Positions 13,267-59,048 of a stretch of DNA of 64,000 nucleotides are shown here, one piece after another. Source of the stretch: an uncultured Acidobacteriota bacterium (lineage in GTDB: Bacteria > Acidobacteriota > Vicinamibacteria > Vicinamibacterales > UBA2999); assembly GCA_963742105.1 (NCBI GenBank), contig CAVUKN010000007.1, positions 777,979 to 841,978 of the forward strand. The letters run 5' to 3'. Position numbers and translations under genes: made by a program. The notes below the pieces were generated by a model, which saw only the letters and a list, made by a program, of their open reading frames with translations, had not been told where the DNA came from and searched no databases. How positions within the stretch are numbered: the stretch's first letter is position 1; each line of letters opens with the position of its first letter.

Positions 13267-13310
13267 AAACGCAGCCAGTGGGGCGACGACGGCAGACGGG
13301 GTAGGCGGCC

Positions 13311-13403
13311 GGTGGGGTCAGGTCTTGAATCGCCACTTTTTTCACGATCGGGGCCAGAGGGCCAGAGCGTGAAAAAACTGTGGATTCAAGACCTGACCCC
13401 ACC
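13311..13403. repeat. long inverted repeat (REP/REPIN-like doublet; possible bidirectional terminator)
   Basis: Perfect 21-bp arms GGTGGGGTCAGGTCTTGAATC (13311-13331) and GATTCAAGACCTGACCCCACC (13383-13403), plus inner TTTTTTCACG/CGTGAAAAAA, between convergent genes. Confidence 0.85.
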
Positions 13404-13465
13404 CGCCGATCACGCACGCCGTGCAAACAGCGCCAGGCGTTGGATGACGACTTGTGCGCGTCTGG

Positions 13466-40200: not shown

Positions 40201-40521
40201 CTGATTGGCGACTGGCGCGCGCCGCTGTTCGGTCCGCTGTATCTGGGGCATGGCGCGCCGTCACTGACGTCACCGCTCACGACCGAAAAGGCGTGCCTCG
40301 CGAGTTTCGTCGGACGCCATCTCAAGCGCGATCGGGTCACGCTGCCGAAGCACGTGGATGCCGAGGTGCTCGCTCACGTGATCCGAATCACCAATCCTGG
40401 AGAGCGAATATCCGACGCGGAGCCGGATCCGCCGGTGGTTGCCATACGGCGCGAATCAGTTGGCGCGCTGGCATCCGGCCGCCGCTCCACGGTCGTACTT
40501 GACGCGCTGGTAGCGAGCTAA
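37277..40521 (+). CDS. large protein with two tandem TagF-like glycerophosphotransferase domains, several apparent frameshifts
   Basis: Domain 1: GHGTISKG, TGFSKMD, FAPTYN, KLHG, SDVSS. Domain 2: GHGLISKG, TGMSKLD, WCPTFN, KMHG, TDVSS..FEF..LDRPV. Shifts near 37370, 37450, 38245, 39600. Confidence 0.75.
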
Positions 40522-40547
40522 ATGAGGAATCAGGTAACAGGTATCAG

Positions 40548-40624
40548 GAATCGTGAATCGTGAATCGTGAATCACGAATCGTGAATCACGAATCATGAAT
40601 CGCGAATCATGAATCACGAATCGT
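40548..40624. repeat. heptamer tandem array (GAATCRY)x11
   Basis: Units GAATCGT/GAATCAC/GAATCAT/GAATCGC counted directly; degenerate units precede it from about 40520. Confidence 0.95.
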
Positions 40625-40633
40625 GAATGGCGA

Positions 40634-40663
40634 GTAGGCCGGGATCCGCGAAGCGGTCCCGGC
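40634..40663 (+). repeat. GTAG-type REP-like hairpin
   Basis: GTAG followed by GCCGGGA-T-CCGC-GAA-GCGG-TCCCGGC. Confidence 0.6.
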
Positions 40664-48348: not shown

Positions 48349-48864
48349 ATGACGCCACCGCCGTCACTGCGAATCGAACCGATTCCCGGGTATTCGCCAA
48401 CGATTGGACGACTCGTCGGCATGCTGACCTACAGCAGGTCGACGACGCTCGCGGCCGTGCAGGGATTGACGATGGCGCAGCTCGATCACCTGCACGACGA
48501 CCGCAGCAATTCGATCGCCGCACTCCTCGCGCACATCTGCGTCGTCGAGCAGTCGTATCAGGTCCTGACGTTCGAACATCGGCCGCTGTCGACGGAGGAG
48601 AACGAGCGCTGGGCGACGGCGTTGAAACTCGGTGAGAGCGGCCGGCTCACGCTGCGGGAACGCCCGCTGGAGCACTACGTCGAACAGTTGACCGCCGTGC
48701 GGCAGAAGACGCTGGACGGCCTGGCGGCGCGCGACGATGCATGGTTGGAGCAGGCCGTGAGTCCGGCGCCACGGATCAACGCGCACTGGGCCTGGTTTCA
48801 CGTGGCCGAAGACGAGATCAACCATCGCGGGCAGATCCGCTGGCTGCGCTCGCGGCTGCCGTGA
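48349..48864 (+). CDS. DinB-family protein
   Basis: IGRLVGML, NSIAALLAH, WFHVAEDEINHRGQI. Confidence 0.88.
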   Translation: MTPPPSLRIEPIPGYSPTIGRLVGMLTYSRSTTLAAVQGLTMAQLDHLHDDRSNSIAALLAHICVVEQSYQVLTFEHRPLSTEENERWATALKLGESGRLTLRERPLEHYVEQLTAVRQKTLDGLAARDDAWLEQAVSPAPRINAHWAWFHVAEDEINHRGQIRWLRSRLP

Positions 48865-48888
48865 GGAGGAGAACGGGGAGAACGGGGA

Positions 48889-49254
48889 GACGGAGCAAAC
48901 GGTTTCACAAACGGAGGAACGAAGGAACGGGGACGAACGGGGGCGGAGCGAAGCGCGACATGCCCAGGGGCAGCGCTGCTGACGGCCCGCATCGCGGGCC
49001 GTCGATCGCACGACGACACGCGGAACAAACCGTCACATGAATCACCAAGACGGCTGTTTCCGCGTGTCGTCGTGCGATCGGAGCCGCCTTCGGCGGCCAG
49101 CAGCGCTCGGTGAGTGCTGTCGCAAGATTCCCAAGCCCGTCACGCTCAGGCGAGTGGAACTTGCGGGAGGTGAGCGGCATGCGCGTAGCCATGTGGCCCG
49201 TTCCGTTCGTCCCCGTTTCCCCGTTGCTCCGTTTGTGATCCCGTTCTCTCCGTC
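48889..49254. repeat. composite palindromic intergenic element (MITE/REPIN-like or structured RNA)
   Basis: 52-bp outer inverted repeats (44/52 match) enclosing a four-way arrangement of perfect stems; see findings. Confidence 0.85.
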
Positions 49255-49287
49255 ACCCTCCGTCTGTGTCAGAGCACGACCCAGGAT

Positions 49288-50409
49288 ATGGATACCTACG
49301 ACTGCATCGTGCTCGGGGTTGGCGGCTTCGGCAGTGCCGCGGCGTATCACGCGTCTCATCGCGGCGCGAAGGTGCTCGGGCTCGAGCAGTTCGGCCCGGT
49401 CCACGATCGCGGCAGCTCGCACGGTGAGTCGCGGATCATCCGGCGGGCGTACTTCGAGCATCCCGACTACGTCCCGCTGGTGGATGCGGCGTACCGGATG
49501 TGGACGGAACTCGAGGAGGTTGCTGGCCGCACGCTCTTCAACCGGTCCGGGCTCCTGCTGTCGGGGCCCGCGGCCGGTGGCGTTATCAGCGGTACGCGTC
49601 GCGCGGTGAGAGCGCATCGGCTCGATATTCGTGAGCTGACGGCGGCGGAAGCCCGCCGCCGCTTCCCGGTGTTTCGATTCGCGGAGGATCATGAGGTCCT
49701 CTACGAACCGGACGCCGGTTATCTGCGCGTGGAAGCCTGCGTCCAGGCGCACATCGAGCAGGCAACGCGCGCCGGTGCGCACCTCAGGTTCGGCGAGACG
49801 TGCCTGGCGTGGCAATCGGACGGCAACACGGTCCAGGTGACGACCGAGCGAGGAAGGTACGAAGCTGCAGGTTTGATCGTCACCGCTGGCGCGTGGGCGG
49901 CGCGGGTGTTGGCCGACCTCGACCTTCCGCTCACCGTATTGCGGAAAGTGCAGTTCTGGCATGCGGTGAATCCGCCCTCCCTGGCCGCGCATGAAGCCTC
50001 ACCGGCATTCCTGTTCGATCTACCGGGCGGGACGTTCTACGGCTTTCCCTGTATCGATGGCGACACGGTCAAGGTTGCCGAACACTCAGGCGGAACGCCC
50101 GTCGAGGATCCGGCCGGCGTCGATCGCGCGTGCCACGAGGATGACATCTCGCCGGTCCAGCAGTTCGTTCGCATGGTAACGCCTAACCTTGCGCCACGAC
50201 CGCAATCGCACGCCGTGTGCCTGTACACCATGGCTCCGCGCGAGCGCTTCATCGTCGATCGCCACCCCAGATTCCGGAACGTCATCGTGGCGGCGGGATT
50301 TTCCGGACACGGATTCAAGTTCACCTCCGCCATCGGACGTGCGCTTGCCGACCTGGCGCTGGGCGACACCACTTCGCTCCCGATTGGGTTTCTGTCGATG
50401 GGGGAGTAG
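49288..50409 (+). CDS. solA: N-methyl-L-tryptophan oxidase / monomeric sarcosine oxidase family
   Basis: GVGGFG, GSSHGESRIIR.AYFE, CLYT (FAD-linked Cys position), GFSGHGFKF. Confidence 0.88.
   Translation: MDTYDCIVLGVGGFGSAAAYHASHRGAKVLGLEQFGPVHDRGSSHGESRIIRRAYFEHPDYVPLVDAAYRMWTELEEVAGRTLFNRSGLLLSGPAAGGVISGTRRAVRAHRLDIRELTAAEARRRFPVFRFAEDHEVLYEPDAGYLRVEACVQAHIEQATRAGAHLRFGETCLAWQSDGNTVQVTTERGRYEAAGLIVTAGAWAARVLADLDLPLTVLRKVQFWHAVNPPSLAAHEASPAFLFDLPGGTFYGFPCIDGDTVKVAEHSGGTPVEDPAGVDRACHEDDISPVQQFVRMVTPNLAPRPQSHAVCLYTMAPRERFIVDRHPRFRNVIVAAGFSGHGFKFTSAIGRALADLALGDTTSLPIGFLSMGE

Positions 50410-57393: not shown

Positions 57394-59048
<1,655 letters not shown>

Follow-up and report, generated by a model that had tools for sequence, protein, structure and literature searches.

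A branched intergenic palindrome in an acidobacterial genome suggests a little-described kind of selfish DNA linked to GxxExxY nucleases

Architecture of the element

The window (the whole 64,000-nt stretch of DNA that was analysed) contains a multi-branched palindromic element between a DinB-family gene, whose stop codon directly precedes the left arm, and solA (Table 1). DNA polymerase IV was rejected as the product of the upstream gene, which encodes a DinB-superfamily / mycothiol-transferase-like protein. The outer inverted repeat covers 56 nt (48885-48940 / 49203-49258, 84% complementary), includes the 52-nt pair of the initial annotation and is the longest among those listed for the 64-kb window; its 9-nt units reach further out, to about 48865 and 49263. 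The 9-nt period first ascribed to the arms holds outside the TCACA core, whereas inside the core, which reads TCACAAACGG-(8-nt units)-GACGAACGG in the left arm, the period is 8.

Table 1. Features of the element and its flanking genes, in window positions.
Feature	Position	Strand	Remarks
DinB-superfamily / mycothiol-transferase-like gene	48349..48864	+	flanking host gene, outside element
Left arm	48865..48940	+	ragged 9-nt ACGG units, then conserved core at 48905-48940
Spacer, left arm to junction	48941..48971	.	
Four-way junction module	48972..49107	.	closing stem 48972-48981 / 49098-49107; covariance model 91.5 bits
Short hairpin A	48981..49003	.	loop ATC; most other copies have GNA or its complement TNC
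Long arm	49003..49080	.	variable covarying stem, CAA[G/A]CC motif (kept mismatch, from 49026) and variable loop
Short hairpin B	49083..49097	-	C-(GAA)-G triloop on minus strand
GxxExxY gene relic: last codons and post-gene spacer	49111..49187	-	aligns with G000 C7:873426-873485
Right arm	49203..49263	-	inverted copy of left-arm consensus; core 49203-49238
N-methyl-L-tryptophan oxidase gene (solA)	49288..50409	+	flanking host gene, outside element

Between the arms, the four-way junction has the form originally described: a closing stem, hairpin A (GACGGCCCGC-ATC-GCGGGCCGTC), a perfect 23-bp stem (49003-49025 / 49058-49080) and hairpin B (GCCGCC-TTC-GGCGGC). The element folds with a z-score of -13.1 both as DNA and as RNA, and none of 100 shuffles was equally stable in either case. 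No Rfam family matches it near a gathering score, the best score being 36 bits against 137, in line with the initial annotation, which recognised no RNA family in it. Extra bases appear within the element in a short-read contig of one soil run, among them a T behind 49054 and an A behind 49023; the former is found in two of four runs and the latter in one of four. The additions bring the element back to the family consensus. The true length of the long stem is therefore probably some 33 bp, with a single mismatch, and the window copy probably has assembly indels or is a strain variant.

A dispersed family in the source genome

Judging from a named homologue and from the titles of records that contain the same motif, the source is a Vicinamibacterales acidobacterium. 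Its genome (G000; 6.2 Mb, 84% complete) contains 75 arms in a profile search, 70 of which make up 35 convergent pairs of 135-1033 nt, numbered here with the prefix E. The window element is one of these 35, which settles the question of copy number raised at the outset. By our own gene calls, in which a few called ORFs overlap element edges and the window's dinB gene was missed by the caller, all 35 paired copies are intergenic, between protein-coding ORFs, with all four gene orientations represented. This location, together with arms that do not covary, sets the element apart from a 23S rRNA intervening sequence.

A covariance model of the junction, which matches both strands, finds 29 loci: 26 full junctions in paired elements, one that is truncated and two beside unpaired arms. 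A structural scan that makes light use of sequence recovers 18 junctions, each at most 170 nt from an arm. The full junction is absent from 9 of the 35 paired copies, and also from the gene-bearing copies L048, L077 and L078; the junction is dispensable for the element.

Three elements contain broken transposase fragments between their ACGG arms (G000 C5:607045-608077 and C5:1593677-1594339; L271 in the relative G044). We take these fragments to be IS256-like, and ACGG-arm elements may be insertion targets of such transposases.

Covariation and strand symmetry of the junction

In a sequence-only alignment, both sides of the stems change in 26 of 28 pairs, a number reached by none of 500 shuffles, and slid controls of the alignment are only 27-44% paired. 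Across 62 cores, the long stem is 92% Watson-Crick paired within G000 copies against 42% between copies, with an anchor chosen to maximise pairing, which biases the figure upward. The loops of the short hairpins are GNA or TNC in 93 of 124 cases and are closed by C-G in 89 of 91; C-(GNA)-G is described as a DNA triloop of very high stability (PMC3201870). All 33 classifiable cores combine one GNA loop with one TNC loop, so that each strand receives one GNA triloop; these junction counts, in which four loop calls and three orientation calls were set by eye, leave out 2 of 76 rows, 11 of 74 with weak or shifted anchoring (the window copy included) and one that was ambiguous. Both strands fold alike, and the junction looks like a DNA-level, strand-symmetric module.

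The outer repeats behave differently from a selected pairing stem: identity between arms is 0.876 within an element and 0.884 between elements. An arm thus resembles its partner no better than it resembles arms elsewhere, and the arms have the look of protein sites, putatively held under a family consensus.

Flip and flop of the long arm

Relative to the two short hairpins, the kept mismatch of the CAA[G/A]CC motif is G-T in 23 cores and A-C in 21. Related loops are found in 69 of 513 within-group pairs (null 0.8), 37 in direct and 32 in reverse-complement orientation, the pairs not being independent of each other. The mismatch flips together with the loop in 48 of 51 informative pairs, and two loci of one genome, L193 and L194, carry nearly identical loops in opposite orientation. 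Across copies, the long arm is present in flip and flop orientations about equally often. The pattern suggests that the hairpin is often cut and copied through its tip, or else that the host often switches template there.

A role of the loop as a guide finds no echo in the genome, where its longest matches are 12-15 nt, within the shuffle range (at least 12 nt in 21 of 22 loops against 87 of 110 shuffles). No gene lies inside the long arm in G000 or in the other loci examined.

A GxxExxY nuclease gene between the same arms

An intact GxxExxY gene between the same outer repeats, one of the things that the initial annotation had proposed to look for, is present in E28 (C7:872860-873736). Here, arms like those of the window copy enclose a 135-aa GxxExxY gene (C7:873039-873446), followed by the junction. 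The protein is a full GxxExxY / PDDEXK_3 member (TIGR04256 137 bits against a cut-off of 35; PF13366 1.8e-38) with intact PD-(D/E)XK residues, and a GIY-YIG domain match was not found in it. Its structural model is a confident PD-(D/E)XK fold (pLDDT 92.9). Among 98 homologues the catalytic residues E31, D71, E81, K83 and Y99 are invariant and Q95 is nearly so; its QxxxY is presumably a RecB/Cas4-type motif. The best Foldseek match is Cas4 SSO0001 (E 3e-4). Wider structural matches are weak and tied between a type IIG restriction enzyme (Z 7.4), Cas4 (7.3) and Hjc (6.6; rmsd 3.3 over 87 aligned residues). A sequence search of the PDB gave 0 matches, and the ESM Atlas, minus PF13366 clusters, gave no usable one. 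Against five homologues the gene shows a dN/dS of about 0.06-0.18, the most distant pairs being near saturation, and no indel is listed in short-read contigs that cover it wholly (two runs) or partly (two runs).

The stretch 49110-49185, where weaker pairings had been proposed, is instead a relic of the 3' end of the nuclease gene. On the minus strand, 49111-49187 aligns with the last codons of the E28 gene and its post-gene spacer, collinear with the junction, at a score of 49 compared with maxima of 46 in 2000 shuffles and 47 in 2000 genomic windows. Among 25 copies tested, only the window copy has so clear a relic; its left-hand spacer shows no significant homology with the same side of the gene-bearing copy. 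Because it keeps the end of the gene, the window copy is best seen as a deletion derivative of the gene-bearing form.

G000 has four more GxxExxY loci, with different flanks; two of them seed small repeat sets of about 21 matches and two do not. At C5:897600-899400, a GxxExxY gene lies within a tandem array in which 133-nt hairpins are interspersed with fragments of GxxExxY genes. The gene at C5:161710-162130 is frameshifted, and its counterpart in G008 (L200) is split too, by assembly error or decay.

Gain, loss and persistence of copies

Empty sites, another check proposed at the outset, exist at a gene junction upstream of a conserved gene that, from its sequence, we take to be ribF: 26 of the 28 genomes carrying both flanking genes lack the element, and in 15 of these 26 the stop and start codons touch. 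A 310-nt copy is present there in G000 and in its nearest relative G044, each with its own genome's arm type, and no target-site duplication is visible at this site. Synteny with G000 extends to both sides for 10 of the 21 paired elements of G044; two of these sites are filled in both genomes and eight lack these arms in G000. Copies have thus been gained or lost, yet some persist long. Several of the G000 sites without these arms carry other inverted repeats. Of 29 relatives, only 2 allowed a judgement at the E14 site, and neither has the element there. The E14 counterpart in G044 (L240, downstream of a phoU-like gene) holds a GTAG-tagged palindrome, and several other gene junctions carry different repeats in G000 and G044.

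The nuclease gene is preceded by the same upstream gene in G000, L077 and G044; it stays long at one locus, and hence the gene itself moves rarely. A target-site duplication was not detected across copies, the longest common flank word being 4.03 nt against 4.02 in controls, with noisy end calls. Neither at the window copy nor at E28 did reads reveal an empty site or an excision joint that could be trusted; the joints seen there are explained by other repeat copies or have short sides. An orthologous dinB-solA junction was found in none of 40 relatives, which leaves the window site with no empty-site control.

Arms and nuclease genes in relatives and metagenomes

Of 36 genus genomes, 7 have an expanded arm core (13-62 matches); none of the other 29 has more than 3 matches. 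A GxxExxY gene adjoins such arms in six of the seven, a genome-level association that is not independent, as the compared genomes are kin. G008 has 25 arm matches, yet a GxxExxY gene with these arms was not found in it, which counts against a GxxExxY explanation. Arms are specific to genome groups (226 of 263 in a leave-one-out assignment). Those flanking a GxxExxY gene score best with their own genome group in 11 of 12 cases (10 of 12 going by the best hits as listed) and with their own genome in 7 of 12; an arm of G015 ties with G044, and G044 and G047 each lack one arm in this set.

In 80 metagenome loci, an inverted repeat brackets the GxxExxY gene in 43 of the 56 with enough flank, compared with 1 of 19 displaced controls; by a strict test, a long arm lies beside only 11 of 99 GxxExxY loci. 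A quick tree of 101 proteins places 29 of the 31 with ACGG-type flanks in one 41-row clade (SH-aLRT 89), a pattern that demonstrates clustering rather than co-evolution, because kin share labels.

A strict junction pattern matches 65 stretches in GTDB, 62 of which are titled Vicinamibacterales or uncultured Acidobacteriota, and gives 0 matches in viral contigs. ACGG arms flank 41 of the 65 on both sides and 7 on one side; of the remaining 17, judged by eye, 16 are enclosed by short-unit arms of other types and one comes after a C-terminal remnant of GxxExxY. The junction model found no match among the 26 candidates scored per genome in 120 other genomes of the class. The junction is a passenger module that is confined to the lineage, passes between GxxExxY arm families and is not required.

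Several nested elements (L029, L036, L190-L194 and L293, from G008, G009 and others) carry a CACGAAG-family arm inside ACGG arms beside the junction, suggesting exchange between arm families. At L098:2230-3100, a GxxExxY gene has a junction copy on each side, in direct orientation, inside CAGAG-type arms.

Comparison with known systems

REPIN/RAYT systems share with the element extragenic, non-autonomous palindromes, compensatory hairpin changes, lineage-specific repeat families and a rare, long-resident enzyme gene flanked by its cognate repeat (PMC3116915, PMC3733652). The GxxExxY gene is resident at one locus like a domesticated RAYT. It encodes a PD-(D/E)XK nuclease, in contrast to the HUH tyrosine transposase of those descriptions, and here the element ends are arrays of 8/9-nt units around an internal 136-nt junction with flip/flop isomers. 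An HUH/RAYT gene flanked by the same repeats, which the initial annotation had suggested seeking, did not emerge: both Y1_Tnp loci of the 84%-complete genome carry other repeats, and none of the 35 arm pairs encloses a Y1_Tnp gene. The unpaired GTAG or CGTC tag that lies beside REPIN palindromes is absent from the consensus of the 62 cores; one subfamily does have CGTC, but solely at the end of a stem, where it is paired.

The Ssn/SRM system likewise joins a small single-domain nuclease gene to flanking repeats that are also dispersed in the genome, and hairpin DNA has been proposed as its substrate (PMC11893778). The nuclease described there is GIY-YIG instead of PD-(D/E)XK, and SRMs are directional hairpins of 20-50 nt, whereas the element here is about 290-400 nt long and strand-symmetric (PMC11893778). 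The element works like REPIN/RAYT or Ssn/SRM and is a member of neither, since its enzyme differs from theirs. Like MITEs and TIRtrons/TIRYT, it has lost internal sequence and retained the inverted ends of the gene-bearing form (PMC3733652). It differs from them in having neither a DDE nor a tyrosine transposase; its outer ends look ragged, and, with noisy end calls, no target-site duplication above controls was found.

A more distant likeness is to parvovirus terminal hairpins, which have flip/flop isomers and which we cite only as an analogy for how isomers arise. Common to both are a branched hairpin, short triloop arms and two inverted-complement isomers that are about equally frequent. 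In contrast, the element is an internal chromosomal palindrome in a bacterium, with no HUH Rep protein.

Proposed mechanism and alternatives

We think it probable, from comparison of sequences, that the element is a gene-less derivative of a cassette, non-autonomous and mobilised in trans by GxxExxY acting on folded DNA. The initial proposal of a non-autonomous REPIN-like unit folded as ssDNA draws support from the gene relic, the empty sites, the strand symmetry and the E28 nuclease gene. The full cassette would consist of an arm, the GxxExxY nuclease gene, the four-way junction and a second arm. The GxxExxY protein would bind the iterated CGG units of the arms and cut the element once it is extruded as an ssDNA hairpin or as a cruciform, as might happen at a replication fork. 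After the cut, the hairpin might be copied through its tip or rejoined, giving flip/flop isomers and compensatory stem changes, and host repair would join the copy into a new site. Host repair is invoked because we know of no strand-joining activity of a lone PD-(D/E)XK domain. More tentatively, and with less than even confidence, we picture a nick-and-hairpin-transfer or cruciform-resolution element resembling parvovirus ends, driven by a minimal Cas4/RecB-type GxxExxY nuclease that reads the arm sites. The isomers could in that case be the footprint of copying rounds, and GxxExxY a third class of repeat-spreading enzyme beside RAYT and Ssn.

Host template switching at long palindromes can also yield compensatory stems and loop inversion. 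GxxExxY might be a host-kept, Ssn-like, arm-recognising nuclease that, for example, restricts incoming ssDNA, with copies arising and inverting through host recombination and template switching. We regard this as unlikely: dispersed insertions in unrelated gene junctions, with a separate arm type per genome group, speak against it, as do the opposite loops of L193/L194, which imply that inversion is about as frequent as point change. It would account for a gene long resident at one locus under purifying selection, for arms without the gene in G008 and for copies that are plain segmental duplicates (E6 with its neighbour; E24 and E30, which have common flanks). The Ssn precedent also favours it, cleavage being shown and mobility only hypothesised in that report (PMC11893778).

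Improbable, in our judgement, is a role as RNA, be it as an mRNA stabiliser, an RNase III-processed intervening sequence or the nuclease's non-coding RNA partner. The element does fold well as RNA, in several gene-bearing copies the nuclease stop codon is closely followed by the junction, and 20 of the 35 copies, counting that of the window, lie between co-directional genes; six, on the other hand, lie between divergent genes. The similar folding of both strands, the covariance model's hits on both and the flipping of the long arm all weigh against the large structured RNA first envisaged, as does the lack of G-U bias: on the mRNA strand of 13 copies G-T is not favoured (8 against 18 A-C), and either orientation occurs on mRNA. 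Further points against such a role are arms that do not covary, a loop that matches the genome no better than shuffles do, and the lack of a terminator or promoter pattern. We give very little credence to the idea that GxxExxY is a passenger and that the element owes its movement to another enzyme, whether a RAYT/TIRYT, an IS256 transposase or a GIY-YIG protein. The genome has two Y1_Tnp and three GIY-YIG matches, and IS256-like fragments lie between arms in E19, E22 and G044 L271; yet each Y1_Tnp gene carries its own, different repeats, the two small GIY-YIG loci examined have neither arms nor junction, and the GxxExxY genes with ACGG-type flanks concentrate in one clade.

Implications for the GxxExxY family

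GxxExxY is a very large family (7994 matches among 7999 scored candidates), and the PDDEXK_3 / GxxExxY entry (PF13366, TIGR04256) is given the function 'Unknown' (PMC3424549). A link between GxxExxY and such arms, or a DNA partner, was not found in the literature searched, mostly non-subscription papers; MITE catalogues may list these arms. New at the locus are the gene relic, the covarying strand-symmetric junction, the flip/flop isomers and arms without pair-covariation. The element offers the GxxExxY family a cognate protein, candidate binding sites in the arms, a candidate structured substrate in the junction, whose mismatch is conserved, and flip/flop as a genomic read-out, and so makes its activity directly testable. 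Should the enzyme move DNA with host help, it would give intergenic palindromes a further way of spreading that needs no classical transposase; should it only cut, it would be a new source of small sequence- or structure-specific DNA nucleases. As far as sequence evidence reaches, the locus points to selfish DNA of a little-described kind, which the GxxExxY nuclease probably cuts and copies in its folded state.

Other repeats in the window

At 13306-13408, the window contains a gene-less doublet of the inverted repeat (GGGGTCAGGTCTTGAA...) that flanks a Y1_Tnp gene at G000 C2:256970; this repeat, of the TIRYT/TIR family, has relatives at about ten loci of the genome. A separate repeat class is formed by arrays of 7-nt units at 53-165, 40513-40647 and 57395-57467, one of which is an inverted pair.
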